DNA from: Promethearchaeota archaeon | GTDB taxonomy: Archaea > Asgardarchaeota > Hermodarchaeia > Hermodarchaeales > Hermodarchaeaceae | Reading direction: 5' to 3' | Length of the DNA: 64,000 nt | NCBI GenBank assembly: GCA_048938295.1 | Contig: JBHLMI010000008.1 | Location: 14,082 to 78,081 of the forward strand | In this document: positions 461 to 58,807 of the stretch, one piece after another | Layout of the letters: the number at the start of each line of letters is the position of its first letter | Numbering within the stretch: the stretch's first letter is position 1 | The notes under the pieces: generated by a model | What the model saw: the letters and a program-made list of their open reading frames with translations, nothing else | What the model was told of the DNA's origin: nothing | Database searches by the model: none | Made by a program: the position numbers and the translations under genes

Positions 461-3226
461 CTAACGCTTCGAGTTTAATGAGCTGACAGGAATAATCAGA
501 TGCTTTTCCCGGAGTTGAAAAATCCCATTCAATAATTCAACTGGATTTTCATTCACTGTTTCTATGTATTTGTTCACTATCTCTGAGAGGTAAATATACT
601 CGCGCTGTTTGCTTATCTCAAGAGCAATGAAATGTAATCTACTTTCCAAATTGGTCAATCGGATATCACCGGTTTTTGTTACAACCTCATGAGGAAAGAG
701 AAGTGAAATGTGAAAGATTTCTTCAAGGAGCTCATTAGCATTTTGGAATCGTCTTGGCTCATATCCGTGATTCAGCAATTCATTTTGATAGTCAGTTTCG
801 AATCTTTTTGTGAACAATTCTAGTTTTTGTCGGAGTGTCTCGCTGGGAGTTCCACGATAAACGATGGCGGTTCGGACATGCTGTCCATCATTAATCAATA
901 CGCGGAAACCTTCGTACGTAATTTCAGAGAGCGGAGGATGGTCTTTCGGTCGTTTTTCTTCATTTACGTCAATCGCAAAAGCTTGGATGGCTTGGAGAAA
1001 ACCGCCAATCAATGAACCATCACGGCCTCTCTCTCCCATGGAATCAAAAATGGCTATGCCTGAGCCTCGGTGGAGAACGAGAAATCGCGAGATATTAGTT
1101 ACATCGTTATAAATGGCCAAGACCTCTTCTAGCTTTTTCTCGTGGGCTTCTCGTTTGGGAATGACATACCGTTTACGATAGCCTTTGCTATACGCAAGCC
1201 ATATAGCAATAAGTATAATCAAGAACATAATTCCGTAGATTATGAGTGCGAACTCGGGTCGAAGGCCTGTATTTACTATGACACTGAACTGGATCTCTGA
1301 TCCATCTGCAATAGATGCATTTGCATATCCCCACTTTTGGAACTCGAGTCCAAAGGTGATTTCACTATCTGGATCAAAGGATCCTGGTGAGAAAAGGGTC
1401 TCATATTCACCTCTAGAATTTTGTGTCATCTGAACGATCTGGTTCTGTCCTTGAGGGTTTGAGTAATGTAACTGGACCTGTGCATCAGTAACCGATTCTG
1501 CAGAATGAGTATTTTGGATACTGACCCTGATGTAAAACGAACCCCATCCAACGGCGCTATTCGGAGTAGGATATACGATGGTGATTTGGGCTTGGTTCAC
1601 TATTGTCACTGCTTGTGATGCTAAGCCACATTGGGTCCCTGAAGCATAAGACACAAGCATAGTGGTTTCTTCGCCGGCGACTTCTTCACATTGCACAGGA
1701 ACCTGCCACACCGCACTGGTAACGCGGTTAGAAAGCGGGTCGAATGTTGGAGTATCATCACGGTGACAAATGGTTCCGTTAGGTAACATTATCGAAATTG
1801 ACCCCTGATTTCCGGTCAATGAGATTGTCTCTAAGACTCCGATAACGCGGATATACTCTTCTACGAGGAGATACTCATTGGAGGTTACATTATCCCACGG
1901 GCCAGTTGATGCAACGCTTTTTTGAAGATACACCTCATTTACGTAATTCGTGCTTCTTGCAGAGATTGTGAACCGATCACCTGATAAGGCAATATTTTCA
2001 TCCAAAAGAAAGAAGCTGAACGACTCATTATATGAATAATCATTCACTGTGAAGCCTGCCGTATCATAAACACGTATCAGCTGCCATCCTTCCGGTAAAT
2101 AAAGCCCAAATTGATAACTGGAGATTCCAGGAGGAGGACGTCCGCTAGGAATTGTATAATTTACATTCCATGTAGGGGGTGAATTAACATCGACAGTATA
2201 GCCGGATTGGGCTTCATAGGGGCTCTCACTCTTCATCTTCATCGTGTAATCAAAATCAAATGATATTGAAAATGTGGAGTTGAAAGAAAAGAGTAGGGTT
2301 TTATTCCAGGTATTAAGGAAATCCACTTTTTCTTCTAACACTGGATCAGCAAATATGTCTACTTCACCATTATTGGTAGTTGTGTCTCTAATTGCTGTTC
2401 CATTCAGAGTAAGCGCCACGTCACTGGGAGCTACATCTGATCCAATTTGGTAGTTGAAGTTGTCAAAAAAGATGTGTCCGTCAACATCGAAGTTATTTAT
2501 GGTGGTTTTGAAGATATCGACACTAAGTATTAATGATCCATTAACAGGGACTGAGGGAACGTTCAGCGTAGTCCAGCTAGTGGGATGAAAATCAAGAGTT
2601 GAAGAGATCCAGTTCGTAGCCGTTGAGCCGAGGTTTGTTTTTATACTTACTTCAATAAATAGCCAACTTGCAGCAGTAATGTCCGGCGAAAATCGTATAT
2701 CAAAAAATAGTGTGAGGGAATCTGGTACTAAAGATGACGTATAGTCAAAGGGATTTTCTATCCACGCGTGTCTTTCTAAAAGCAGTTTGCCATAGGCTAA
2801 TTCAATATCCAGACAAGATCCTGGGTTTCCTCCTGATGTGTTAGCAAGTGAACTAATTAGTCCTCCTCCGCTATCAGCCAGGGTCCAATTAGTACCAGGT
2901 TCAGTATATTGTTCGAAATCTCCGTTGGGAACAGGATTAATGGTTGTCCGGACATTCTGAATGTCGGTGTGTAAATGATAACCTCGATAAGAGGTTGGAT
3001 ACCACTCAGAAAGATATGAAAAGGCCGAATCATTGTGGGCATTGAAAAAGTTCGAGCTGTGATTTTGGCCAAATTCATAGACAGTGAGGTTCGTGCCTGC
3101 TCCGATTAATTGAGTCGGTGAAGCAGGAGATGAAATTTGAGCAGAATCAATAGGCGATGTGGGAGTGATGACTAACACACTCACTAGGAGTAGCAAAATG
3201 GCTGAAAGGGTTAGTTTTAGTTTCAA
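461..3226 (-). CDS. large surface protein: signal peptide, ~640-aa N/S/T-rich ectodomain, single TM helix, ~250-aa cytoplasmic tail with a roadblock/LC7/MglB-like domain
   Basis: 921-aa ORF with a TTG start. N-terminus MKLKLTLSAILLLLVSVLVITPTSP is a signal peptide. A TM helix (ALIIYGIMFLIILIAIWLAY) is followed by positively charged residues. The cytoplasmic segment FLVLHRGSGIAIFDS..GSLIGGFLQAIQAFAIDV..ITYEGFRVLINDGQHVRTAIVYRG fits the beta-alpha-beta-beta pattern of the roadblock fold. Confidence 0.6.
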   Translation of the reverse strand: MKLKLTLSAILLLLVSVLVITPTSPIDSAQISSPASPTQLIGAGTNLTVYEFGQNHSSNFFNAHNDSAFSYLSEWYPTSYRGYHLHTDIQNVRTTINPVPNGDFEQYTEPGTNWTLADSGGGLISSLANTSGGNPGSCLDIELAYGKLLLERHAWIENPFDYTSSLVPDSLTLFFDIRFSPDITAASWLFIEVSIKTNLGSTATNWISSTLDFHPTSWTTLNVPSVPVNGSLILSVDIFKTTINNFDVDGHIFFDNFNYQIGSDVAPSDVALTLNGTAIRDTTTNNGEVDIFADPVLEEKVDFLNTWNKTLLFSFNSTFSISFDFDYTMKMKSESPYEAQSGYTVDVNSPPTWNVNYTIPSGRPPPGISSYQFGLYLPEGWQLIRVYDTAGFTVNDYSYNESFSFFLLDENIALSGDRFTISARSTNYVNEVYLQKSVASTGPWDNVTSNEYLLVEEYIRVIGVLETISLTGNQGSISIMLPNGTICHRDDTPTFDPLSNRVTSAVWQVPVQCEEVAGEETTMLVSYASGTQCGLASQAVTIVNQAQITIVYPTPNSAVGWGSFYIRVSIQNTHSAESVTDAQVQLHYSNPQGQNQIVQMTQNSRGEYETLFSPGSFDPDSEITFGLEFQKWGYANASIADGSEIQFSVIVNTGLRPEFALIIYGIMFLIILIAIWLAYSKGYRKRYVIPKREAHEKKLEEVLAIYNDVTNISRFLVLHRGSGIAIFDSMGERGRDGSLIGGFLQAIQAFAIDVNEEKRPKDHPPLSEITYEGFRVLINDGQHVRTAIVYRGTPSETLRQKLELFTKRFETDYQNELLNHGYEPRRFQNANELLEEIFHISLLFPHEVVTKTGDIRLTNLESRLHFIALEISKQREYIYLSEIVNKYIETVNENPVELLNGIFQLREKHLIIPVSSLNSKR

Positions 3227-3818: not shown

Positions 3819-4003
3819 GAGGTGTGCTAGTCTTACAATCTATTTTTTGGTTTTCTCATCTACTCTCATCGAATGTTTTTAGGAAGCAAACATTCTTAAC
3901 GGTTTTATCAAGCAGTTAGTTAATTATAGAGGAGTATGGGTTCAGTTACGAATAGGCACTGAATTCCATAATGATTAAAGACACAACAGTGAGGTAATAA
4001 TTC

Positions 4004-4537
4004 GTGGCGGACATATCCTCACCAAAACGATGGATATTCAAAGTTATTCTCATGGGTGATTATGCTGTCGGTAAAACTTGCATTATTCGACGGTATGTAT
4101 CAGACACCTTCATCGAGGATTACAAGGCAAGTATTGGTGTGGATATTACATCTCAAGAACTCGACTATAAAGACGATCTTGTGCAATTACAACTTTGGGA
4201 CATGAGTGGACAAACAGATTTCAAACTTGTCCGTAAACAATTCATGAGTGGCACAGACATTGGTATCATTGTCTTTGATTTGACGCGGCCAAGCAGTCTG
4301 TTAAACGTGGAAAGATGGATTAACGAAATTCATGTGATGCTACCTGAGCTACCTCTTGTGCTGGTGGGTAACAAATCTGATCTCTCCAATGAACGGCAAA
4401 TTTCCCGAGAAACGGCTGAGAAGACAGTGAAAAAGTTTGATATGCTTTTTTATTCTGAAACTTCAGCAAAATCTGGGGACAATATTACGCAGCTATTCAA
4501 GGATGTGACCAAGCGGTTAATGGCGGATATGAAATAG
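4004..4537 (+). CDS. Ras/Rab-family small GTPase
   Basis: GTG start with GAGGT 9 nt upstream. All G-box motifs are present: G1 GDYAVGKT, G3 WDMSGQ, G4 GNKSDL, G5 ETSAK. Length is 177 aa. Confidence 0.85.
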   Translation: MADISSPKRWIFKVILMGDYAVGKTCIIRRYVSDTFIEDYKASIGVDITSQELDYKDDLVQLQLWDMSGQTDFKLVRKQFMSGTDIGIIVFDLTRPSSLLNVERWINEIHVMLPELPLVLVGNKSDLSNERQISRETAEKTVKKFDMLFYSETSAKSGDNITQLFKDVTKRLMADMK

Positions 4538-4569
4538 GAAAGGGAATGTAAACAAGGGGGGAATAGGCA

Positions 4570-5487
4570 ATGCCCCAAGGGGCAGCGTTATTAGAATTCG
4601 ACCAGAAAATGGGACCTATCTTCAAAGTTGCTATTCCTAACACACTTGAAGTTACCCAGGATGAAACGATTGTTCTCTTCACCACGCGAACTAAGATGGA
4701 CGAAGGATTTACCAGTTTGAAGGTTAAAGACCGAAACTGGGTAACTTATCTGAATCCTCCTTATCTTTACTGTATCTTGCTTACACCCGCTGAACATCAA
4801 AACGACTTCGAAATACCCATGACAGAAGTACTCAATAATTTCCAACCAAATAATAGGGTTTCCACAGAGGTTCTTAATGAACTGTATGATGATATCGTTT
4901 CCCGTATTGGTGATGGTTTACGAAGACGTTTATCAGAACAACTAATAGTTCAAAAGCTTCTCGCATTCATTCGGGAATCACAAGAAGCGTTGCGACCTTC
5001 CTGGTCAATAAAGACTGGGTATCATTACCCCAGGGCTGAAAGCATCACCGGTGAATCACCTGAAGATACAAACGCGCTGCTTGGTGTTATGATGACAGCG
5101 GGATTACTCTATGGGCGAATCTGTGGAAATATTGCAATCTGCCCCCAATGCTCAAATCCTAAAATCGGACTGCACGCAAGTTGTCCGAAATGTGGGTTAC
5201 CAACTCTTGAAGCAGGCATAGCTATTGAGCATTTTACTTGTGAATATACGGCGTTCATCGAGAAGTTTTCGACATCCCAGGGTCTCGTCTGTCCTCAATG
5301 TCATGCTTTGTTATCGACTGGCACTTATCGATCTTTAGGTCGCGTCTACCATTGTGTCACTTGCAAAAGCTATCCTCCTTCTGTAGAGCCTATGTTCGGC
5401 TGTCTGACATGTCAATTTACTTTTACAGCAAATGAGGCGAAATATTTACCTGTATATTGTTTCACCATAGCTGAAGAGACAGAATAG
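4570..5487 (+). CDS. GTPase-associated protein: N-terminal alpha/beta (possibly roadblock/longin-like) domain plus four CxxC zinc-ribbon pairs
   Basis: 305-aa ORF starting 33 nt after the GTPase stop (operon). C-terminal half carries CPQC..CPKC, CPQC..CVTC, CLTC Cys pairs. N-terminal ~120 aa shows alternating beta/alpha propensity. Confidence 0.6.
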   Translation: MPQGAALLEFDQKMGPIFKVAIPNTLEVTQDETIVLFTTRTKMDEGFTSLKVKDRNWVTYLNPPYLYCILLTPAEHQNDFEIPMTEVLNNFQPNNRVSTEVLNELYDDIVSRIGDGLRRRLSEQLIVQKLLAFIRESQEALRPSWSIKTGYHYPRAESITGESPEDTNALLGVMMTAGLLYGRICGNIAICPQCSNPKIGLHASCPKCGLPTLEAGIAIEHFTCEYTAFIEKFSTSQGLVCPQCHALLSTGTYRSLGRVYHCVTCKSYPPSVEPMFGCLTCQFTFTANEAKYLPVYCFTIAEETE

Positions 5488-5564: not shown

Positions 5565-6410
5565 GTGTCAGATATGGTTAACTTACTCATCGGGTTCGGT
5601 ATACCCAACTGGGCTTGGGACATCATAGCCCTTGTGATAACATTTCTTGTTATCCTTATCCTGATTCGTGTCAACGACATTCTTAGGAAGCGAGAGATTA
5701 TACCAATCTATATCTCACGAAAAGTCATCCATATTTTCGCGGCGCCAATCTTTCTTGTATGCTGGTTGCTCTTCTCTGGAGACTACTATAGCCGCTATTT
5801 TGCGATGATGGTTCCTCTCCTCTTCGTTCTGTTGTTCATTGGCATTGGAACTGGCATGATAAAGAATGAAGAATTCGTCAATACAATGTCTCGTGAAGGG
5901 AAACCTAGCGAACTGCTCAAGGGGACACTGTTCTATGCGGTTATCATGGTGCTTTCAAGTATCTTCTTCTGGTATGTTCCTGTTGATGGCACGTTGCAAC
6001 CGAGATGGATAGTGTTTATCCCAACAGCGGTTCTGATCTTCGGTCCGCTAGCAGGTGGCGATGGCTTTGCTGATTTGATTGGTCGACGGTTTGGAAAATG
6101 GAAGTTCCATATTTTTGCTGAAAAGAGCTTACTCGGTACGCTGTCAATGTTTATATTCAGTCTCCTTGGAACTTTAGGCCTTCTATTCGTTTTCTGGTTA
6201 GTCCTTGACCCTATTTGGGCATCAGTCAATGTAACCGTACTACTCATCCCAATCATCGTAGTATCCCTAGTATGTACAATCATCGAAGTCTTTAGTCCAC
6301 AGAATATGGATAACCTTTTGATACCATTGTTTGCAGTGATTACCCTCTTCGTCCTAGCCCTCGTTGGCTTGTATCCATACCCCATTTGGCATACCGGACC
6401 CCTACCTTAG
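5565..6410 (+). CDS. CTP-dependent polyprenol kinase family membrane protein (phytol/dolichol kinase-like, CdsA superfamily)
   Basis: 281 aa, about 7 TM segments. C-terminal motif GDGFADLIGRRFGKWKFHIFAEKSLLGTLSMF matches the VTE5/dolichol-kinase signature GDGxADxxGRRFG...KSxxGS. Confidence 0.55.
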   Translation: MSDMVNLLIGFGIPNWAWDIIALVITFLVILILIRVNDILRKREIIPIYISRKVIHIFAAPIFLVCWLLFSGDYYSRYFAMMVPLLFVLLFIGIGTGMIKNEEFVNTMSREGKPSELLKGTLFYAVIMVLSSIFFWYVPVDGTLQPRWIVFIPTAVLIFGPLAGGDGFADLIGRRFGKWKFHIFAEKSLLGTLSMFIFSLLGTLGLLFVFWLVLDPIWASVNVTVLLIPIIVVSLVCTIIEVFSPQNMDNLLIPLFAVITLFVLALVGLYPYPIWHTGPLP

Positions 6411-6474
6411 GTCCATTCAGAAGACCTTTTCAGGTAGGGCGTCCATTAACTACCTGTTCTGCCTTGCGGGTAGG

Positions 6475-7326
6475 ATGCGGGAGTCCAAATACCATCAATT
6501 GAGAAAGGAGCTGCAAGATTCATTGCCAAGACGTCTTACCATTATCAAACTCGGTGGGTCTCTCATCACTGATAAGAGTAAGCCCTATACTCTGCGAGAG
6601 GAGCAGCTGAAACGCATTACCCAAGAAATCGCGGAAGTACTCGGTCCCTGTGTCATAGTTCATGGTGTTGGAAGCTTTGGTCATGTCCCAGTGATTGAGA
6701 GGAAATTATACGAGGGTTATAAGGGCCCTGAACAGCTTCCTGGTTTATCTCAAACCATGGTTGAAGTATTTGAACTCAGGATGGCTGTAACCAAAGCTGT
6801 GACGGATGCCGGACTAGCTCCAATCGTGTTTTTACCGAGTAATATCTTCTTCATGACCGAAGGAGAAATTACAGGTCACTTCAGTGGGGGCCTTCGTCAG
6901 TATCTGGATTTGGGTATGACCCTACTCATGGGTGGTGATATGTGTGCTGACTCCCAACGTGGTTTTAGCGTTTGCTCCGGGGATAAGGTCGTCCAGCTGC
7001 TCTCGCGTCTTCTTGGACCCCGGGATGTTATCTTCGCTACAGATGTTGCTGGAATTTATACTGCAGATCCTAAACTAGATCCAAAGGCAGAACTCATTCC
7101 TCGTATCTCACTCGCCAAAATTGAAGAGTATGAAAAGCTTGCCGATGAAGCGGCGACCCCTGATATAACCAAAGGGATGCGGGGGAAGTTGGAAGAAATC
7201 AAACGATTTGAATCCATTCTAAAGAGTGGGGCTGAAGTGGCTATTTTAGGCATGACAGAGCCAGGAATATTACGCCGATATATGAATGGTGATCCGGATG
7301 TCCCTTGTACGAGAATCACCCTCTAA
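6475..7326 (+). CDS. ipk: isopentenyl phosphate kinase (amino-acid-kinase fold)
   Basis: Motifs IIKLGGSLIT and VHGVGSFGH plus an overall amino-acid-kinase pattern. Start moved to the internal ATG at 6475 to avoid overlap with the upstream gene; the ORF track starts it at 6364. Confidence 0.7.
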   Translation: MRESKYHQLRKELQDSLPRRLTIIKLGGSLITDKSKPYTLREEQLKRITQEIAEVLGPCVIVHGVGSFGHVPVIERKLYEGYKGPEQLPGLSQTMVEVFELRMAVTKAVTDAGLAPIVFLPSNIFFMTEGEITGHFSGGLRQYLDLGMTLLMGGDMCADSQRGFSVCSGDKVVQLLSRLLGPRDVIFATDVAGIYTADPKLDPKAELIPRISLAKIEEYEKLADEAATPDITKGMRGKLEEIKRFESILKSGAEVAILGMTEPGILRRYMNGDPDVPCTRITL

Positions 7327-27466: not shown

Positions 27467-28150
27467 TTATTTTTCAGCCCATTGCAATGGCTTGGTTTCA
27501 TTATAGATTAACCATCGAGTATCCACCCGAGTACCTCGAAGATGATGTAACCGAATTTTGTGTCTGAGCTGGCTTTTGTCTTCTTCATCACAGATTTCTA
27601 TAACACCATCCACGGAGAATCGCAAAGTTGCTACTACATCGTTTGTATGAACTCCTTCCTCAAGAAGGTAGATTCCAGTTACGCCACGATCCTTCACCCG
27701 AGCACAGAGGACTTGGAGGAATTTTATAACGGATAGTGGTGCTGAATAAGTCATCAAAGTTGTCAAGTTATCAAGGCAGAGGTGACCATTCTCAAGGTCA
27801 GCAATCGCTTGAAGAAGGAGTAAACTAATTGTATTCAGGTCATAGAGATTCTGAAATGAATACGGTTCTTTAGAGGGTTGAGCTGTAACACAAGAAACCC
27901 CATCAGCTATCCGAAGCTGGGAGGCTACTGGCTTTCCTCCGATTTGGCTAAGAGTCTGGCGTATTTGGGCAGGGGACCAGAGAGTCGTAGCAAAAACGGC
28001 GGGTTCTTTTACCTTTAGCCGATCAGCTAAATAGCGTAGAGCAAGGGTAGTTTTCACCACACCAGGAGGTCCAATGAGAAGTAGTTGTGATCCCCTTGGA
28101 AGCTCAAAAGCACCCTGGGGAACAAATGTTGGACTAATAAGGTCAATCAC
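27467..28150 (-). CDS. KaiC-like RecA-superfamily ATPase (single domain)
   Basis: Walker A GPPGVVKTT, Walker B-like hydrophobic strand ending in D/E. 8-nt overlap with the upstream KaiC-like gene. Confidence 0.7.
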   Translation of the reverse strand: MIDLISPTFVPQGAFELPRGSQLLLIGPPGVVKTTLALRYLADRLKVKEPAVFATTLWSPAQIRQTLSQIGGKPVASQLRIADGVSCVTAQPSKEPYSFQNLYDLNTISLLLLQAIADLENGHLCLDNLTTLMTYSAPLSVIKFLQVLCARVKDRGVTGIYLLEEGVHTNDVVATLRFSVDGVIEICDEEDKSQLRHKIRLHHLRGTRVDTRWLIYNETKPLQWAEK

Positions 28151-28850
28151 TATCGATTCCTCCTTGCAGGTATAGTCCTTCTTTCCCGACCTTCATTTCG
28201 TACCATTTTGTCTCATGCTGCACTCCAATTAGACTATATATACGGAGAAACCAGTCAAGTGAGCCCTTTGGTTCAGCAACAGTCTTGGTATGAATTGACC
28301 CTTGAACCAAGGATCGAAGATTTGTGGTCAGTTTGGCATCATGGGCTTGGTCTTCTAAGACGAGGATGAGAATTTTGTTGAGAGTAATGATGCGCTGTGC
28401 GATACTGTGAACAAAAGTCCGGATGCGTTGTTCATCAGGAGCAGACAGACTAAGTCCTGAAACCGAATCGATGATGATAACCGAACCCGGTTTCAAAAGC
28501 TTTGCTTGATCAATCATTATTAGATTGACTTCGTTCAGATTTCCGGGATTATTAATTCGATTAAAGGCAAAGGGATCAGTGTGCATTCCAATTCTCCAGC
28601 TATAAGCGTCCACAAAATAGATGGGGAGTTTCCCCGGCTGAGCGGGGAACGGAATTCCAAAACCACGAGCTTGCTGGACAAGTGTGGAAGGTGTGTTTTC
28701 TGTGGAAAGATACAGGACATCAAGTCCATTATTCGCTGTATCCAATGCAAATTGGAGACTAAAACATGTTTTACCCGACCCTGGTTGTCCAACTAGGACG
28801 ATACTCGTTCCTTTTGGGAGCCCACCCTGTAGGATTGGGTCGAGGATCAC
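28143..28850 (-). CDS. KaiC-like RecA-superfamily ATPase (single domain)
   Basis: GTG start. ILDPILQGGLPKGTSIVLVGQPGSGKT (Walker A), IIIDSVSGL (Walker B). Confidence 0.75.
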   Translation of the reverse strand: MILDPILQGGLPKGTSIVLVGQPGSGKTCFSLQFALDTANNGLDVLYLSTENTPSTLVQQARGFGIPFPAQPGKLPIYFVDAYSWRIGMHTDPFAFNRINNPGNLNEVNLIMIDQAKLLKPGSVIIIDSVSGLSLSAPDEQRIRTFVHSIAQRIITLNKILILVLEDQAHDAKLTTNLRSLVQGSIHTKTVAEPKGSLDWFLRIYSLIGVQHETKWYEMKVGKEGLYLQGGIDSD

Positions 28851-29045
28851 GATAGCCCCCTCTGTTCTCTTATTCGCACCTCAGATTGGCTCTGTAGCCA
28901 AGTTCATAATCTAGCTCTCCTGAATGGGAATAAAGCTTTTGGGAAGTCTGTAGTTGTTCATGGTTATATTGAGGAGAGACGGAAACCTCTTAAGCCATCA
29001 TCTTGGTACTTGAATAGTAGGAGACTTACTAATCGGGGGATTAGT

Positions 29046-29786
29046 GTGGCTGAAAAGACAAAATCAGGTATACCAGGCTTAGATGAAGCATTGCATGGTG
29101 GATTTCCCACAGGCTCAGTGATTCTAATTAGTGGTGGACCGGGTACCGGCAAATCCATTCTACTAAACCAGTTTCTCTTCAATGGTGCGTCACAATTCAA
29201 GGAACCTGGGATCCTCGTCTCTATGGAAGAGTCACTCGCGTCGACGATTAGGAACATGAAACAATTTGGTTGGGATATGCAAGAACTCATGGATAAAGGC
29301 TTAATCGCCTTGGTCGATGCTTCGCCAATGATACAGAATGAACGTATTGTTCTCAAACCTGAGCACCCTGTTCTTGGACGAGAAGAATTTACAATGGAAT
29401 CACTACTGTCCTTGATACATCGTGAAATTCGACGCGTGAAAGCCAAACGTGTGGCCATCGACTCGATTTCGACCCTAACCCTCCAACACAAAGACCTCTT
29501 CCGGATTCGACACGACCTGCTTAACATGGTTCGTTCCCTTCGAATGAGTCAAGCCACCTGCTTGGTGGCAGTGGAAAGCCCCAACGAAGATAGCATCGGA
29601 CGATTTGACGTCGAAGGCTTCCTTATGGACGGAGTCATTATGATGAAACTCATGAGCCAGGGAGCGATCCGCATACGAACTATCGAAATTAACAAAATGC
29701 GTGGAACAAACCATCAAATGAATCCCCTACTCCTCATAATTGGAGAAAAAGGCATTCAAGTCTCCGACCTACCACCCATTCAATAA
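29046..29786 (+). CDS. KaiC-like RecA-superfamily ATPase (single domain)
   Basis: GIPGLDEALHGGFPTGSVILISGGPGTGKS, RVAIDSIS. Start taken at GTG 29046 with GGGGGAT ribosome-binding site; the ORF track gives TTG 29010. Confidence 0.75.
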   Translation: MAEKTKSGIPGLDEALHGGFPTGSVILISGGPGTGKSILLNQFLFNGASQFKEPGILVSMEESLASTIRNMKQFGWDMQELMDKGLIALVDASPMIQNERIVLKPEHPVLGREEFTMESLLSLIHREIRRVKAKRVAIDSISTLTLQHKDLFRIRHDLLNMVRSLRMSQATCLVAVESPNEDSIGRFDVEGFLMDGVIMMKLMSQGAIRIRTIEINKMRGTNHQMNPLLLIIGEKGIQVSDLPPIQ

Positions 29787-29883
29787 CCTCGATGAAAAAT
29801 ACCAGAATGAACCGACTAGCTTAAATCTCAACAAATGAAAGGAAATACCTGAGGGAAAAATCAACTGGGTTTGGTGACAAAAA

Positions 29884-30423
29884 ATGCGCCCCCAAAGCAG
29901 CCGTTACATGTTCAAGGTTTCGGTAATTGGCGATTACGCCGTGGGAAAAACCTCCCTAATTAAACGTTATATGACGGATTCCTTTGATGAAGGGTATAAA
30001 GCAACTCTTGGCGCTGCTATTTCCTCGTTCCAAACCAGCGTAAAGGGATCTGATGTCGCGCTGCAAGTTTGGGATCTAGCAGGCCAAACCTCCTTCCGTA
30101 GAGTTCGGGTACAATATCTATTCGGCACTGATTTCGCGATCGTGGTATTCGATTTAACAAGAAAAGATTCTTTGGACTGTGTTAAAGAATGGGTGAGTGA
30201 TGTAAGGCAGGGTGCGCCTGAAGTACTCCTATTCCTTGTTGGTAATAAGGCAGATTTGAAGGAAGATCGAGTGGTGAACCCTGTGGCTGCTGAGAAAGTC
30301 GGAAAAAGTTTGAATATGCTTGGCTACCTTGAGACCTCCGCAAAGGAAGGAACCAATGTCAAAGAACTCTTTCACATCATTTCCGAATACCTCTTAGAAC
30401 ATACATTCACTGTAATAAAATGA
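29884..30423 (+). CDS. Ras/Rab-family small GTPase
   Basis: G1 GDYAVGKTS, G3 WDLAGQ, G4 GNKADL, G5 ETSAKEG. 179 aa. Its stop overlaps the next start (ATGA). Confidence 0.85.
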   Translation: MRPQSSRYMFKVSVIGDYAVGKTSLIKRYMTDSFDEGYKATLGAAISSFQTSVKGSDVALQVWDLAGQTSFRRVRVQYLFGTDFAIVVFDLTRKDSLDCVKEWVSDVRQGAPEVLLFLVGNKADLKEDRVVNPVAAEKVGKSLNMLGYLETSAKEGTNVKELFHIISEYLLEHTFTVIK

Positions 30424-31898
30424 CAAAAAAGGTGCTCGAACGCGTGACACTCCCAAGGGAAATCACTGAATTCCTGAACGAGGAACAGGGACAAACTCTA
30501 CTCATCAAAGGAAAATCAGGAACTGGAAAATCCACACTAGCCTTATCCTTACTTGGTCATCTAGCCGAGACCCTACCTAAGAAATTCAGTGTTGAAAACT
30601 TTGTGTACCTTTCAACGCGTGTTGCAAGCTCGAGTCTGAAATCCCAATTTCCTTGGGCGTTTCAATTGCTTTCAGAAAATCAAATCATCGATGCGACACC
30701 ATCGCTCATGGGGCTTCCTGAAACCACCTTAGCGTGTGGGGAGTCATCTAACAATCGGATGGTGTACTCCGATGAGTTGACGTTCATTAGCGCAGTAAAT
30801 GATCGATTGCGGAACTTGACCAATCCTGTGTGTGTCATTGACTCATTTGATGCGATTATCGAAGCCGCGCAAGCTGACCCCCAGCGCCTGACAAGCGCAT
30901 TAACGAATCTTGGTCGCATCCTATGCGGTAAAATCATTCTTATTGTCGAAGGTATTGAGGAGTCGACGTTAGATCATATAGTCGATGGTATTGTATGCGT
31001 CACTAAGGAATTCACGGCAGAGCGGATGTGGCGTAGTCTTCGGCTAATCAAGCTCCGTGGTACGCCAATTGATCAAAGTATGCGAGGATTTTCTCTTCGG
31101 GGGAGTCGTTTTACCATTTTGCATTCATTTGATGCAGAACAAGCCAACCGCGTATCAGATTTCGAGGTCATCGCCCACTCTGGTGGTCGATTTTCGTCAG
31201 GAGTCCCAGAACTAGATACGGTTTTTGGCGGTTTCAGACGAGGAAGCACATTCTTCATTGATGTCGCCGAAGGCGTCGCCAACGAAACGGTTCACAGTCT
31301 AATCTTCAGCATGGTGGCGAACTTCCTACGCCAAGACAGCGGTGTTGTCATTGTTCCACCAAACAAACTGAGCTTCCGGCGACTCAAAGCAGCCTCACTT
31401 CGCTACGGATTTGTCGACCAACTCAACACACGCCTCCGCTTCTTCGCAAGTGCAGCGACTAGCCTAGGCGTTTCTAGTGCAACTGGAGAACTTGGTGAAC
31501 CATATTACAAAACCGTGGCATTCCGTGAAAGCTCTGATCTTGAGAATGCTTGGAGTATGGTGGTAGAAGAACTCAGAAATCAAGGGTGCAAAAACTTACT
31601 AAGCGTAGTAGGCTTTGGTTGGTTGCATTCATGGTTAGGCCCAACCGAATTACCACGTTGGGCTACGCGGATTGCCAATGATACCGCTACGGAAAGTAAC
31701 CTAGCAGTCACCATAGGCTATAGCAGTACAAAGGATATAAACCGATATCTGGCAGATTTAGCAGACATTCACGTTCAGTTAGCAGTAAAGGAAGGAGTCA
31801 CAGTCTTTCATGGAATCAATCCCTCGACTCCTCAATACTGCATCTACACACACCTTGTGGAGGGAAACCCACAAATTGGCTTCCAAGAAATCGGATAA
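30420..31898 (+). CDS. tandem KaiC-like protein (active N-domain plus degenerate C-domain)
   Basis: N-domain has Walker A GKSGTGKST. C-domain keeps the KaiC-like loop GVPELDTVFGGFRRGSTFFI but lacks GKT/S, so it is a pseudo-ATPase. Confidence 0.65.
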   Translation: MTKKVLERVTLPREITEFLNEEQGQTLLIKGKSGTGKSTLALSLLGHLAETLPKKFSVENFVYLSTRVASSSLKSQFPWAFQLLSENQIIDATPSLMGLPETTLACGESSNNRMVYSDELTFISAVNDRLRNLTNPVCVIDSFDAIIEAAQADPQRLTSALTNLGRILCGKIILIVEGIEESTLDHIVDGIVCVTKEFTAERMWRSLRLIKLRGTPIDQSMRGFSLRGSRFTILHSFDAEQANRVSDFEVIAHSGGRFSSGVPELDTVFGGFRRGSTFFIDVAEGVANETVHSLIFSMVANFLRQDSGVVIVPPNKLSFRRLKAASLRYGFVDQLNTRLRFFASAATSLGVSSATGELGEPYYKTVAFRESSDLENAWSMVVEELRNQGCKNLLSVVGFGWLHSWLGPTELPRWATRIANDTATESNLAVTIGYSSTKDINRYLADLADIHVQLAVKEGVTVFHGINPSTPQYCIYTHLVEGNPQIGFQEIG

Positions 31899-32256
31899 GA
31901 TTCGCATCCTATTAGCAGATGATTCACCACACTTTCTCCGTTCAGCTCAGCTACTCCTTCGTGACTATGATATTGAAACTGCACTTGATGGGGAAGAGGC
32001 TCTCGCTAAACTTAAGGCTAATCCACCAGACATCTTCTTCGTGGACCTAGTACTGCCAAAAATTCGGGGTACCGACCTCATTCGCCTAGTCTCAAAGGAG
32101 TACCCTGACATTGCCATTGTCGCTTTGACTGCTATCGATGATCATGAAACTGTACAAGAAGTCATGGATTTAGGTGCAAAAGGTTATCTGATTAAGCCTG
32201 TATCATCGGATACCTTCAAGACAGAAATCAAGAAACATACCGAGTCTAGCGATTAA
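31876..32256 (+). CDS. stand-alone CheY-like response-regulator receiver
   Basis: IRILLADDSP (acidic pair), FVDLVLP (phospho-acceptor Asp), ALTA (Thr), KGYLIKP (Lys). Start is uncertain: TTG 31876 overlaps the upstream stop. The ORF track's 31810 start would overlap by 89 nt. Confidence 0.65.
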   Translation: MASKKSDKIRILLADDSPHFLRSAQLLLRDYDIETALDGEEALAKLKANPPDIFFVDLVLPKIRGTDLIRLVSKEYPDIAIVALTAIDDHETVQEVMDLGAKGYLIKPVSSDTFKTEIKKHTESSD

Positions 32257-42472: not shown

Positions 42473-44680
42473 ATGCGTGGCTGGATCCTCGACGTAACTC
42501 CCCGGTCCGACCACTTGGTCCTGTGGTTGCGCACGGCAGCAAAATGCATTCCCTTGGAAATACCTTATCAGCCACAATTCTACTTACACGCACCTGGCGT
42601 CCAATTCGAGAACTATGCGCCGCTGTTCGAGAATCACCCACTGGTATGCGCTGTGACCCCGGCGTTTCGTCGGCTGCAATTGCGAGGCGCGCGACGACCG
42701 GTTCTCGCCGTAACAGTCTCCTCCTGCACCCAACTCTCCCGAGTCGTTCACGAAATCAAAACCCTCGCTGTCCCCCGTTTTCGCGTCTTCAACGGCGATC
42801 TCTCCGCAACCCAGCTCTGGTACCTCGAGCAACGGCGCTTCCCCTTCGAGCAGGTGGAGGTCCACACCGACCAGTCGGGGTCCCGTGTTACCCACATCGA
42901 CTCCTGCGACTCCCGGTGGGCCCTCGACTACGAACTGCCGTCCTTTGATACTGTGGACCTCCACCTAGAAGGAGAAGACCTGTTCTGTGCCACCAGCACC
43001 TCTGGTGAGACGTTGCAGACCACAGAGCCCATGATGCTCCAGGATTGGATTAACATTCAAGATCCGGACATCATCTTCACCGAAGACGGCGACTACCGCA
43101 TCTTTCCTACTCTCATTCGACGCGTCCAAGAGGAGGGGATGTTGCACCAGTTTTCGTTGAGTCGGGACCAGACTCCCCATGTCTTCAGTGACAAGACTCT
43201 GCCTGCAGGTCGTGCTGTCTTCCGGTATGGCGGCCCAGTCTTTTATCGTCCACACCCCTTTCTGCTCCATGGACGTTTGCATCTGGACCGATCACACATG
43301 ACCTTCGGTAACTTCGACGGACTCATCGAATCAAGTCGAATTACCGCCTTTCCGCCCCAGCGTATGGCGCGAAGCAGCCCGGGCACCGGTATCAATATGC
43401 TCCAGATGCAAGAGGCACTCAACCGTGGTGTCCTGATTCCCGAAACCAAAGCCGACCCAGAAGAGTACAAGACCGGGCTTGAACTCCTCAACGCTGACCG
43501 GGGTGGCCACGTCATCACCCCGCGTGTTGGCATCTTCAGTGAAGTCGGCGAACTCGACTTCCTGTCCATGTATCCGTCGCTGATGGTCAAGTATAACATC
43601 TCGCCGGAAGCCTTGTTCTGCGACTGTTGCCCCGAGGACGCCACTGTGGTGCCCGAGATAGGCTATTGGTTATGTCGGCGCCAGCGCGGCATTGTCCCTA
43701 CCTTCCTTGAACCTATTCTCAAGAAACGAATCTACTACAAGCGACACCGCCATGATGACCCTATATACGAGGCGCGGCAAGCCGCGTTGAAATGGCTCCT
43801 CGTCGTCTCCTTTGGTTACCTCGGGTTTCGAGCCTCACGATTTGGTCGCGTCGAAGCCTATGAATGTGTCACAGCCTTCAGTCGACGGGTCCTGCTGCAG
43901 ACCAAAGCCGTCTGTGAACGCAAAGGCTTTGATGTGCTCCATGGCATCGTGGACTGCGTCTGGCTGCAGAAGCCCGGCGCCACTGTCGAAGACTACCTGA
44001 CCGCCGGCGAAGCCGTTGAGGAAGTGACCGGACTACCGATAGAATTTGAAGGCCGCTATCGGTGGATTATGTTCTTGCCTTGTCGCAATCAACCCTACGG
44101 CGCGCTGACACGCTACTGCGGAGTAAAACACGATGGTACCATTAAAGCCCGAGGCATTGAACTGCGACGCCGTGATACTCCACCGTTCATCAAGCAACTC
44201 CAGATGGACCTCCTCACTTGTCTGGCGGGAGCTGAAGACACTGATGAGATGCAGCAACTGCTCCCGCAATTGCTCGATATCGTCAAAGACTATCTTGACC
44301 TTTTGCACAGCGGTGGAATGACAACGGAGGACCTCATCATCACTCAACGCATCAGCCGATCCCCCCACGAATACCAGCAGCAGTGCAGCCAGGCCATTGC
44401 CGCTGAACTCGCCATCCGATACGGGCAAGACATCCAGCCAGGACAAGCCATTAAGTACGTGCACACCGACTCCACGTCTCGTCATCCATTGCGCCGTGTC
44501 GCGCTCCCCCACACCGCAGCAGCAGTCCACTATGACAAGGACAAATACACCGAGCTGCTGCTCCGCGCCGCCGATACCCTCCTGACACCCCTCGGTTGGA
44601 ATTACGAGCGGCTCACACAATACTTCAGCGATAAACCAGTCCAAACCTTGCTGGACTCTCATATTCGAGTGCGAAAGTAG
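42473..44680 (+). CDS. family-B DNA polymerase paralog (GC-rich; degenerate exonuclease motifs and degenerate motif C)
   Basis: N-terminus MRGWILDVTP.. resembles archaeal PolB N-termini. Pol motif A LDFLSMYPSLM, motif B KWLLVVSFGYLGF, KxY-region KARGIELRRRDTP. Motif C position reads VLHGIVDCVWL instead of YxDTDS. Exo I position is HLE instead of DxE; Exo II is DGDYRIFPTL. GC content of the ORF is about 58%, against roughly 40-45% in surrounding genes. Confidence 0.7.
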   Translation: MRGWILDVTPRSDHLVLWLRTAAKCIPLEIPYQPQFYLHAPGVQFENYAPLFENHPLVCAVTPAFRRLQLRGARRPVLAVTVSSCTQLSRVVHEIKTLAVPRFRVFNGDLSATQLWYLEQRRFPFEQVEVHTDQSGSRVTHIDSCDSRWALDYELPSFDTVDLHLEGEDLFCATSTSGETLQTTEPMMLQDWINIQDPDIIFTEDGDYRIFPTLIRRVQEEGMLHQFSLSRDQTPHVFSDKTLPAGRAVFRYGGPVFYRPHPFLLHGRLHLDRSHMTFGNFDGLIESSRITAFPPQRMARSSPGTGINMLQMQEALNRGVLIPETKADPEEYKTGLELLNADRGGHVITPRVGIFSEVGELDFLSMYPSLMVKYNISPEALFCDCCPEDATVVPEIGYWLCRRQRGIVPTFLEPILKKRIYYKRHRHDDPIYEARQAALKWLLVVSFGYLGFRASRFGRVEAYECVTAFSRRVLLQTKAVCERKGFDVLHGIVDCVWLQKPGATVEDYLTAGEAVEEVTGLPIEFEGRYRWIMFLPCRNQPYGALTRYCGVKHDGTIKARGIELRRRDTPPFIKQLQMDLLTCLAGAEDTDEMQQLLPQLLDIVKDYLDLLHSGGMTTEDLIITQRISRSPHEYQQQCSQAIAAELAIRYGQDIQPGQAIKYVHTDSTSRHPLRRVALPHTAAAVHYDKDKYTELLLRAADTLLTPLGWNYERLTQYFSDKPVQTLLDSHIRVRK

Positions 44681-57811: not shown

Positions 57812-58807
57812 CTAGCGTTCTTCTTGCAAGCTCTCTAGGCTCTCAATTACAACGTCACGCTGTCCCTGTCGGGTGAGGCTCCGCAGAAACGTTCCTAGCA
57901 CACCCACTTCACTGACACCAAGCCGTTGCATGGCATGAATTGTTCGTTTTTCGAAATCATCTAATGAGAGGGCTTGCGGGTCAATTCCAATGAACTCTAC
58001 TAAACTCGATTCCGTCTTGACCTCCACCACCACATCTTCATGAACGGGTTGTGGTTCGCTTGGTGGTGGAATTGGTGTGGTGTCTGGTGCGTTTACTGGT
58101 GGTGGTTCCATCGGGACCACTACTTCAGGTTCAATAGCTGGCTCCGGTTCAGGTTCAGGCGTTACCTCAACCACTGGTTTAGGAATTGGCTCAATGTTCG
58201 GCGTAGGAGCCACAGGTTCCGGTTCTGGAACTGGCGCGGGAGCGGCAGGTTCAGCAGGTGGTGGTGTAGGCGCCTCTTCCACTTGGCCTGGCCACTTGGA
58301 TCCAATAATCGTTTTTGCCATTAGAATAAATGCGTCTCCCACATTTTCGTCCATCTTCGCACTTGTCTCAACATACTGCAACCCCGCTTGCGCCGCAAAG
58401 GCCTCCGCCTCCTCACGTGACACAACACGCTGATCCAGCAAATCCGTCTTATTCCCAATCAGAATCCCTGGAATATTCCCTGCATTCTTCCGCGTCTCTT
58501 CCAGCCAACCAGCAAGGTGCTCAAAGGACGACCGATCAATTACACTTAACACATAAATGACACCGGTTGAGCCCTGATAGAACAAGGGACGCACACCCCC
58601 AAAATGGGGTTGACCTGCCAAGTCCCAAATTTGCAACTTGACAATTACAGTCCCAAGATCAACAGTCTTTACGGCAAAAGATGTACCAATGGTCATTTTG
58701 TATGTGTCGGTAAAGGTCCCCTGTGTATACCGGACAATAAGACTGGTTTTACCCACGGCGCCGTCGCCAGCAACAGGGACTTTGAAGATGTAGGTCGCTT
58801 TACTCAT
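57812..58807 (-). CDS. Ras/Rab-family small GTPase fused to a Pro/Glu-rich linker and a ~75-aa C-terminal domain
   Basis: G1 GDGAVGKTS, G3 WDLAGQ, G4 GNKTDL, G5 ETSAK. Residues 173-255 are PEPEPE/PAP repeats; then ..EFIGIDPQALSLDDFEKRTIHAMQRLGVSEVGVLGTFLRSL.. Confidence 0.8.
   Translation of the reverse strand: MSKATYIFKVPVAGDGAVGKTSLIVRYTQGTFTDTYKMTIGTSFAVKTVDLGTVIVKLQIWDLAGQPHFGGVRPLFYQGSTGVIYVLSVIDRSSFEHLAGWLEETRKNAGNIPGILIGNKTDLLDQRVVSREEAEAFAAQAGLQYVETSAKMDENVGDAFILMAKTIIGSKWPGQVEEAPTPPPAEPAAPAPVPEPEPVAPTPNIEPIPKPVVEVTPEPEPEPAIEPEVVVPMEPPPVNAPDTTPIPPPSEPQPVHEDVVVEVKTESSLVEFIGIDPQALSLDDFEKRTIHAMQRLGVSEVGVLGTFLRSLTRQGQRDVVIESLESLQEER
58043..58291 (-). repeat. low-complexity Pro/Glu/Ala/Val-rich coding repeat (linker of the GTPase)
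   Basis: EPAAPAPVPEPEPVAPTP...TPEPEPEPAIEPE. The nucleotide level shows GGTTC/GGTGG periodicity. Confidence 0.6.

Follow-up and report, generated by a model that had tools for sequence, protein, structure and literature searches.

Within a 64,000-nucleotide stretch of DNA from a Promethearchaeota archaeon (contig JBHLMI010000008.1 of assembly GCA_048938295.1, positions 14,082 to 78,081; hereafter the window), a gene for a Rab-like small GTPase is closely followed on the same strand by a gene for a 305-residue partner protein. The N-terminal domain of the partner is predicted to adopt the longin fold, and its C-terminal half belongs to TackOD1, an output domain of archaeal response regulators. 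We give an even chance to the reading that the two genes constitute a two-gene small-GTPase signaling module of this Hermodarchaeia-type archaeon, in which the longin domain would dock on the GTPase in the place of a receiver (REC) domain and TackOD1 would be the output. This reading builds on the gene arrangement, the domain identities, the predicted folds, the conservation of motifs, and a partial conservation of the two genes as neighbors. Both open reading frames (ORFs) were borne out at the coordinates at which an earlier interpretation of the letters (the sequence-only reading) had placed them. The genes and the domains of the partner are as follows.

4004–4537, forward strand: GTPase gene, GTG start, 177 amino acids (aa), Rab-like small GTPase
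4570–5487, forward strand: partner gene, ATG start, 305 aa, longin and TackOD1
4570–4935, forward strand: longin-fold domain, partner residues 1-122, order ββ-α-βββ-α-α, with F10-D11-x3-G15-P16 in the β1-β2 loop
4942–5139, forward strand: winged-helix-like module, partner residues ~125-190, first third of the TackOD1 match
5140–5469, forward strand: TackOD1 Cys/His cluster, partner residues 191-300, five CxxC and two HxxC

In the mechanism that we infer, from co-transcription and physical interaction to the direction of signaling and the nature of the output, the first gene would encode a Rab-like GTP/GDP switch that is soluble, lacks a lipid anchor, and has its own catalytic glutamine. The second would supply a longin domain of the "GP-motif" type of NPRL2, FLCN, and C9orf72, followed by a winged helix and a zinc-knuckle cluster with three sites. 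The longin domain, probably as a dimer, would dock against the switch face of the GTPase encoded next to it, by analogy with the longin/roadblock platforms of MglB-MglA, TRAPP-Rab1, Mon1-Ccz1-Rab7, GATOR1-RagA, and C9orf72-SMCR8-Arf1, and would occupy the position held by REC in REC-TackOD1 proteins. The output of TackOD1, by binding to nucleic acid or to a further protein, would thereby be tied to the nucleotide state of the GTPase, and the GP-motif longin may also speed up GTP hydrolysis.

The predicted longin-fold domain of the partner

The AlphaFold2 model of the partner places β-strands at residues 4-9, 17-22, 46-52, 55-62, and 65-71 and helices at residues 30-41, 81-89, and 99-122, confirming the alternating β/α character that the sequence-only reading had recognized in the N-terminal ~120 residues. 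The same reading had described this domain as roadblock- or longin-like. The modeled fold agrees with that description at the superfamily level, being of the longin type, which starts with a β-strand and ends with two C-terminal helices; the roadblock part did not stand, as the helix-first topology of roadblocks is not found in the model (for the comparison of the two folds, see PMC10933270). The modeled N-domain is structurally similar to solved longin domains. Its structural matches include AP-3 mu, Lst4, Sec22b, folliculin, Inturned, Mon1/Ccz1, and DENND1A, with roadblocks scoring 8-9.4.

The loop between β1 and β2 contains the sequence F10-D11-Q-K-M-G15-P16, which directly precedes strand 2. 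A GP motif at the end of this loop is common to the longins FLCN, NPRL2, SMCR8, and C9orf72, which are active as GTPase-activating proteins (GAPs), and to a class of Asgard longins, and C9orf72 additionally requires W33-D34 just upstream of the motif (PMC12290439). The spacing of the partner motif equals that of W33-D34-x3-G38-P39 in C9orf72 and F14-H15-x3-G19-P20 in NPRL2, the human sequences of which we confirmed on the PDB entries 6lt0_C and 6ces_N. G15-P16 is nearly invariant among the partner orthologues, in which R40, R55, W57, Y60, P63, P64, and E75 are invariant. The remote relatives of the N-domain read W-D-x3-G-[PAT] at this position, with D11 and G15 invariant across all of those found.

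These remote relatives are few, since a profile of the N-domain retrieved only 13 proteins from 1.8 billion representative proteins, and a third homologue search, with the remote N-domain alignment as the query, returned short fragments only. Four of them (P0026, P0027, P0032, and P0035) again combine the N-domain with TackOD1, whereas in three (P0030, P0033, and P0034) the C-terminal part is another one, ~240 aa long and with weak winged-helix matches. The gene of P0030 (library-wide E 1.8e-4; locus L012) lies 14 nucleotides (nt) upstream of a GTPase gene, in whose 282-aa product an Arf/Rag-like GTPase domain is preceded by a longin-like N-terminal extension. Because P0030 has C-terminal modules other than TackOD1 and again adjoins a GTPase, the GTPase link follows the N-domain and not TackOD1. 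The link to a GTPase recurs with the N-domain in another architecture and another gene order and is not universal. The remote longin-TackOD1 gene in locus L014 adjoins a gene for a KaiC-like ATPase.

The TackOD1 half and the Rab-like GTPase

Residues 126-299 of the partner match the Pfam family PF18551 (TackOD1) with an E-value of 6.1e-23 and 81.8 bits against a cut-off of 32, and the match spans profile positions 9-187 of 188. The same precomputed domain is present in 23 out of 23 partner homologues. What the sequence-only reading had taken for an unusual zinc-ribbon variant with four CxxC pairs is a curated family that has already been described, and the pairs number five (C191/194, C205/208, C241/244, C262/265, and C278/281), besides two HxxC (H202-C205 and H221-C224). 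Eleven cysteines are invariant across 21 partner orthologues, as are the five CxxC and H221-C224. Six of the seven Cys/His knuckles would suffice for the three predicted zinc sites. In the AlphaFold2 model, the TackOD1 part consists of a winged helix followed by zinc knuckles, with the wing running into the first knuckle and with low confidence for residues 203-228.

TackOD1 was defined in 2018 as an output domain of archaeal response regulators with REC-TackOD1 and REC-wHTH-TackOD1 (winged helix-turn-helix) architectures, the function of which "remains obscure," and its published description of 11 highly conserved cysteines, five CXXC, and HXXC fits the partner (Galperin et al. 2018, PMC5847659). 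In the literature we searched, TackOD1 was named only in that paper. The Pfam scan of the partner gave no match to the receiver family Response_reg; the N-domain is modeled as a longin instead.

Upstream of the pair, on the reverse strand of the window (461–3226), lies a 921-aa ORF with an N-terminal hydrophobic stretch resembling a signal or membrane anchor. From the translation, we read its large middle part as extracellular, followed by a further hydrophobic, transmembrane-like segment and a C-terminal part that we take to be cytoplasmic. This C-terminal part begins with ISRFLVLHRGSGIAIFDSMGERGRDGSLIGGFLQAIQAFAIDV...ITYEGFRVLINDGQHV, resembling another longin/roadblock-type domain. It gave no Pfam or PDB sequence match, and it shares 28% identity over 79 aa (pairwise E 2e-6) with the N-terminus of the second TackOD1 protein of locus L001 (L001 8297–9406), so that these archaea may have TackOD1 in fusion with longin-like domains of two different kinds, as judged from their sequences. 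Profile alignment (hhalign) of the partner N-domain with the second TackOD1 protein of L001 and with the C-terminal domain of the 921-aa ORF was not significant.

The GTPase matches the Pfam family Ras with an E-value of 9.5e-47 and 159 bits against a cut-off of 21.6. Its best solved relatives among PDB sequences are Rab6/Ypt6 (E 2e-35) and the Thorarchaeota Rab 7ezb (E 2e-31), with Rab43, Rab1, and Rab7 as further ones. We call it "Rab-like" because of these best matches, and not in the sense of full Rab membership. The sequence-only reading had considered all five G-boxes intact. Four of them are indeed canonical, namely G1 (GDYAVGKT, residues 18-25), G3 (DMSGQ, 66-70) with the catalytic Gln70, G4 (NKSD, 123-126), and G5 (SAK, 154-156), but the switch-I residue of G2 is Ser43 instead of the canonical threonine. 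The serine is invariant in the alignment of the orthologue family, which is recognizable by the signature ASIGVD / WDMSGQT, and is also found in a Thorarchaeota relative 37% identical to the GTPase. Neither the GTPase, which ends with ...KRLMADMK, nor any aligned orthologue has a C-terminal cysteine, the hallmark of prenylation, and the GTPase has no N-terminal glycine, the motif for a lipid anchor being absent. From its sequence, it would be a soluble switch.

Two further Ras-superfamily genes were seen in the window. A second Rab-like GTPase (29884–30423, 179 aa), 48% identical to the first and with the canonical threonine in G2, is located within a cluster (27467–32256) that also encodes three KaiC-like ATPases, a GvpD-like ATPase of 492 aa whose start overlaps the stop of this GTPase, and a REC-only response regulator. 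Small GTPases with KaiC-like ATPases and two-component proteins are a theme common to this cluster and to the surroundings of the pair in L001. The third gene (57812–58807, reverse strand) encodes a 331-aa Ras-family GTPase composed of a Ras domain, a Pro/Glu-rich linker of ~100 aa, and a C-terminal segment of ~70 aa.

Gene arrangement and conservation of the pair

The GTPase and partner genes are separated by 32 nt, one fewer than previously counted (33 nt). The features around them are the following.

3883–3898, forward strand: conserved 16-mer GAAGCAAACATTCTTA (consensus AAAGCAAACATTCTTA), ~105-120 nt 5' of the GTPase start
3991–3995, forward strand: Shine-Dalgarno-like GAGGT, 8 nt ahead of the GTG start of the GTPase, read from the sequence
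4538–4569, forward strand: intergenic spacer of 32 nt, with AAGGGGGG at 4554–4561 and no oligo-T run

The sequence AAGGGGGG contains a Shine-Dalgarno-like GGGGGG run 8 nt ahead of the ATG of the partner. A single transcript for the GTPase and the partner is plausible because of the 32-nt gap, this Shine-Dalgarno-like run, and the absence of an oligo-T run in the gap. The GTPase gene probably has its own promoter, because the upstream gene for a SnoaL-like protein is followed by oligo-T runs at 3843 and 3876. Elsewhere, the spacer measures 10 nt in L001, ~32 nt in L004 (end of the GTPase gene at 4893, start of the partner match at 4926), and at most 35 nt in L006 (end of the GTPase match at 3965, start of the partner at 4001).

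The upstream 16-mer recurs with 0-3 mismatches at the same relative position 5' of the GTPase orthologue in L004/5, L006, L007, L023/24, and L025/26 (positions 4232 in L004, 3316 in L006, 3394 in L007, 4873 in L023, and 4829 in L025). The intergenic DNA around it has diverged between the loci. In the window it is followed by AGAGGAG at 3928–3934, and across the loci AGGAG lies ~30-37 nt after AAAGCAAACATTCTTA. The 16-mer was kept in every syntenic locus with the GTPase, even where the partner gene is missing, and was found neither 5' of solo partner genes nor 5' of the pair in L001. It may serve the GTPase gene as a promoter, operator, or leader element. An Rfam scan of the window gave no RNA family, and a search for inverted repeats near the operon as a possible operator gave one trivial palindrome only, within the GTPase coding sequence.

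The partner is a real conserved gene, since its homologues form 23 clusters with E-values of 1.7e-89 or better, which share 46-100% identity with the query and are mostly of full length. Where the records are named, they come from Promethearchaeota or Hermodarchaeia, and they are annotated only as "hypothetical protein"; the record with 100% identity to the partner belongs to a Promethearchaeota metagenome-assembled genome. As for the two genes being kept as neighbors, which the sequence-only reading had left as a test of its proposal, a GTPase orthologue is located directly upstream of the partner at 6 of the ~12-14 partner loci, and the remaining loci have no adjacent GTPase. The six comprise the window, L004/5, L006, L007, and L017, of which the latter four form a clade with 65-74% identity, and L001/2, the most distant partner orthologue (46% identity), where the flanking genes are entirely different. 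Scans of metagenomes and genomes added only 9 loci, and the counts of co-occurrence are therefore small. The local synteny block consists of genes for SnoaL, FGGY kinase, saccharopine dehydrogenase, the GTPase, the partner, a 278-aa membrane protein, and a member of the amino-acid-kinase family.

In L001, the pair is preceded by genes for three KaiC-like ATPases and followed by genes for a histidine-kinase-type ATPase, the second TackOD1 protein, a REC protein, and a PAS histidine kinase; this signaling context around the pair argues for the signaling module. Because the L001 GTPase is more identical to the window GTPase (51%) than to the second GTPase of the window (46%) and carries the common ASIGVD / WDMSGQT signature, it is the orthologue of the former. 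From the distribution of these sequences, we favor an ancestral GTPase-partner pair whose members became separated repeatedly, as both clades with a GTPase have the same GTPase orthologue.

Some observations concern the start of the partner gene and its neighbors. Many partner orthologues (L004 at 4926; L006, L007, L008, and L009 at 4001; L017 at 111; and others) have a conserved N-terminus PxGxxLxEFD with an Ile or Leu codon where the window has ATG, and the database gene calls P0005-P0007, P0009, P0011, and P0018 start at a later methionine, losing the first strand and the FD of the motif. Either these orthologues use unusual start codons or their true starts lie elsewhere. Downstream of the partner in the window, a multi-pass membrane protein of 281 aa without a Pfam match (5565–6410, forward strand) is followed by the amino-acid-kinase-family gene (6364–7326, forward strand). 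The motif GDGFADLIGRRFGKWKF of the membrane protein presumably resembles that of polyprenol/phytol-kinase-type enzymes. The linkage of these two genes to the GTPase is retained in L004 and L025/26, also where the partner is missing. Further away, a 735-aa ORF (42473–44680, forward strand) with the family-B DNA-polymerase-like motif LDFLSMYPSLM falls within the one GC-rich part of the window, and the GC content there (55.6% versus ~44-45% elsewhere) suggests a foreign or mobile origin of this region.

Alternative readings and relation to known systems

Several results weigh against the signaling-module reading. The full-length AlphaFold2 model of the partner is of medium confidence, with a mean predicted local distance difference test (pLDDT) score of 75, and residues 1-122 modeled alone gave a poorer model (pLDDT 64 versus 75, with residues 1-32 unstructured), which we did not use. 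A Foldseek search with the N-domain returned the same kinds of proteins with weak E-values, all at least 5e-3. No longin, NPR2, folliculin, C9orf72, or roadblock profile was found on the partner (Pfam at E-values up to 1; NCBIfam), Pfam gave no match on 12 N-domain relatives at E-values up to 10, and PDB sequence profiles gave none to the partner N-domain. Single hhalign comparisons aligned G15-P16 with G19-P20 of NPRL2 (E 0.026) and G38-P39 of C9orf72 (E 0.01), with the right register and without significance. On the output side, the TackOD1 part is mildly acidic, with an isoelectric point of 5.7-6.1, and the predicted recognition helix SPEDTNALLGVMM has neither lysine nor arginine; DNA binding by the TackOD1 part is therefore not evident, and is possible. 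Among the loci, the partner has no adjacent GTPase in the clade with 55-62% identity (L003, L008, L009 from Hermodarchaeum yapensis, L011, L018, L019, and the P0015 contig) and in that with 52% identity (L020/21). In L020, the partner occupies the syntenic slot without the GTPase, and in L023/24 and L025/26 the GTPase occupies it without the partner. Two losses and two gains are equally parsimonious for the pattern of adjacency on the neighbor-joining tree. Nor is a GTPase encoded next to two of the remote relatives, P0027 (L014) and P0033 (Odinarchaeum, L016).

The remaining point concerns the arginine finger. The catalytic arginines of the related GAPs are R78 in NPRL2, R164 in FLCN, and R147 in SMCR8 (PMC12290439). 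The β4-β5 loop of the partner, N62-P63-P64, has no arginine. By the register of secondary structure, it is in this loop that R78 of NPRL2 would lie. R40, at the end of α1, and R55, in the β3-β4 turn, are conserved among the close orthologues only, being replaced by histidine or hydrophobic residues in the remote relatives. An arginine finger could not be placed in the partner N-domain by the alignment and the secondary-structure register. We rejected R55 as the equivalent of NPRL2 Arg78, which the likeness of "KDRN" to "YSRN" had made a candidate, as it is located in the β3-β4 turn, at the sheet edge opposite the GP loop, and is not kept in the remote relatives. C9orf72 itself has no arginine finger, and the modeled N-domain appears at least as close to the finger-less C9orf72 type as to the NPRL2 type.

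Sharing the GP motif of GAP-active longins, the partner might instead be mainly a GAP, or an exchange factor for guanine nucleotides, acting on the neighboring GTPase like NPRL2, FLCN, and SMCR8-C9orf72 on Rag/Arf, and TackOD1 would then be a sensor, localization, or scaffold domain controlling the action of the longin. We find this doubtful, as the expected loop has no arginine finger and neither R40 nor R55 is kept in remote relatives. Known longin GAPs are moreover heterodimers, and no second longin subunit is encoded adjacent to the partner gene, while TackOD1 stands behind REC, at the output position, in every documented architecture (PMC5847659). It is also improbable, in our estimate, that the adjacency merely reflects a lineage-specific gene order and that the longin binds a different GTPase, a KaiC-like ATPase, a protein of a two-component system, or a small ligand. 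The GTPase is missing at about half of the partner orthologue loci, either gene is seen alone at the same syntenic position, and the upstream 16-mer goes with the GTPase gene irrespective of the partner, all in line with such independence. So are the KaiC-like ATPases that recur near longin-TackOD1 genes (L001 and L014) and the general location of Asgard GTPase genes outside operons with roadblock/longin genes (PMC10933270). However, the same GTPase orthologue accompanies the partner into the unrelated context of L001, a remote relative of the N-domain again adjoins a GTPase in L012, and the two genes are very closely spaced (10 nt in L001, 32 nt in the window, and ~32-35 nt in L004/L006).

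In MglA-MglB of Myxococcus and Thermus, a Ras-superfamily GTPase likewise stands beside a longin/roadblock-superfamily protein expected to dock as a dimer. A further reading takes up the roadblock option of the sequence-only reading; the N-domain would then be of the roadblock/LC7 type and would work on a Ras-like GTPase as MglB does, within a switch for polarity or motility. We hold this to be highly improbable. As modeled, the N-domain lacks the α-β-β-α-β-β order with an N-terminal helix of roadblock/LC7 (Pfam PF03259), and the results lend no support to an MglB-type roadblock. MglB itself consists of one roadblock domain and is a GAP whose GTPase is without the usual catalytic glutamine, whereas the present pair combines a predicted longin and two further modules with a Rab-like GTPase that has Gln70.

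The signaling module, as we prefer to read the pair, has partial counterparts in known systems. The REC-TackOD1 and REC-wHTH-TackOD1 regulators of Thaumarchaeota and other TACK archaea share PF18551 with its 11 conserved cysteines, five CXXC, and HXXC, at the C-terminal output position (PMC5847659). The partner differs from them in its input, a predicted longin fold and not a phospho-receiver, and in its adjacent gene, which encodes a small GTPase and not a histidine kinase. In comparison with GATOR1 (NPRL2-NPRL3), FLCN-FNIP, C9orf72-SMCR8, and the GP-motif Asgard longins (PMC12290439), the partner is without a DENN domain or the C-terminal domain of NPRL2. Whereas the eukaryotic longin GAP complexes act on Rag or Arf, the linked GTPase is here Rab-like, with no placeable arginine finger in the longin and no second longin subunit encoded nearby. 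The likeness to them is at the level of structure and motif only, the match of sequence profiles not being significant.

Asgard archaea have many NPRL2-like longin proteins, and as a class their fusions to domains related to two-component systems were described before (Liu et al., bioRxiv 10.1101/2020.10.19.343400; Fig. 5c). The partner fits this class, coming from the same group of archaea and joining a longin to TackOD1 as such a module; the accessible text does not name TackOD1 and describes no GTPase gene beside the fusions. The same source describes an Asgard operon of a LAMTOR1-like roadblock, a Rab-like GTPase, and a DENN protein. That operon and our pair both link a Rab-like, not a Rag, GTPase to the roadblock/longin superfamily. 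The pair encodes neither a DENN nor a LAMTOR1-like protein, and it is found in part of one lineage, whereas the operon is, in that account, present in most Asgard archaea.

Both domains of the partner and the class of its fusion were already known; what the locus adds is a rare matched candidate of a GTPase and a longin. In Prometheoarchaeum, GTPase genes are generally located outside operons with roadblock/longin genes, and matching Asgard regulators to their GTPases is hard because there are dozens of each and the genes are rarely adjacent (Tran et al., PMC10933270). A study from 2025 raised the question of what GTPases the GP-motif Asgard longins have as clients; these longins are probably related to the catalytic core of GATOR1, folliculin, and C9orf72-SMCR8 (PMC12290439). 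The locus provides a small, soluble, matched candidate pair of 177 and 305 aa, or the 122-aa N-domain alone, and suggests a Rab-like client for GP-motif longins. More tentatively, and with considerable doubt, a Rab-like GTPase might in this lineage have replaced the histidine kinase as the input to an output domain of the response-regulator type, with the GP-motif longin reading or resetting the GTPase and TackOD1 controlling gene expression. That would be a prokaryotic pathway from a GTPase to transcription and would provide the first genomically matched client GTPase of GAP-type Asgard longins, Rab-like and not Rag or Arf. The pair would join "eukaryotic-type" GTPase/longin signaling to a prokaryotic response-regulator output domain.

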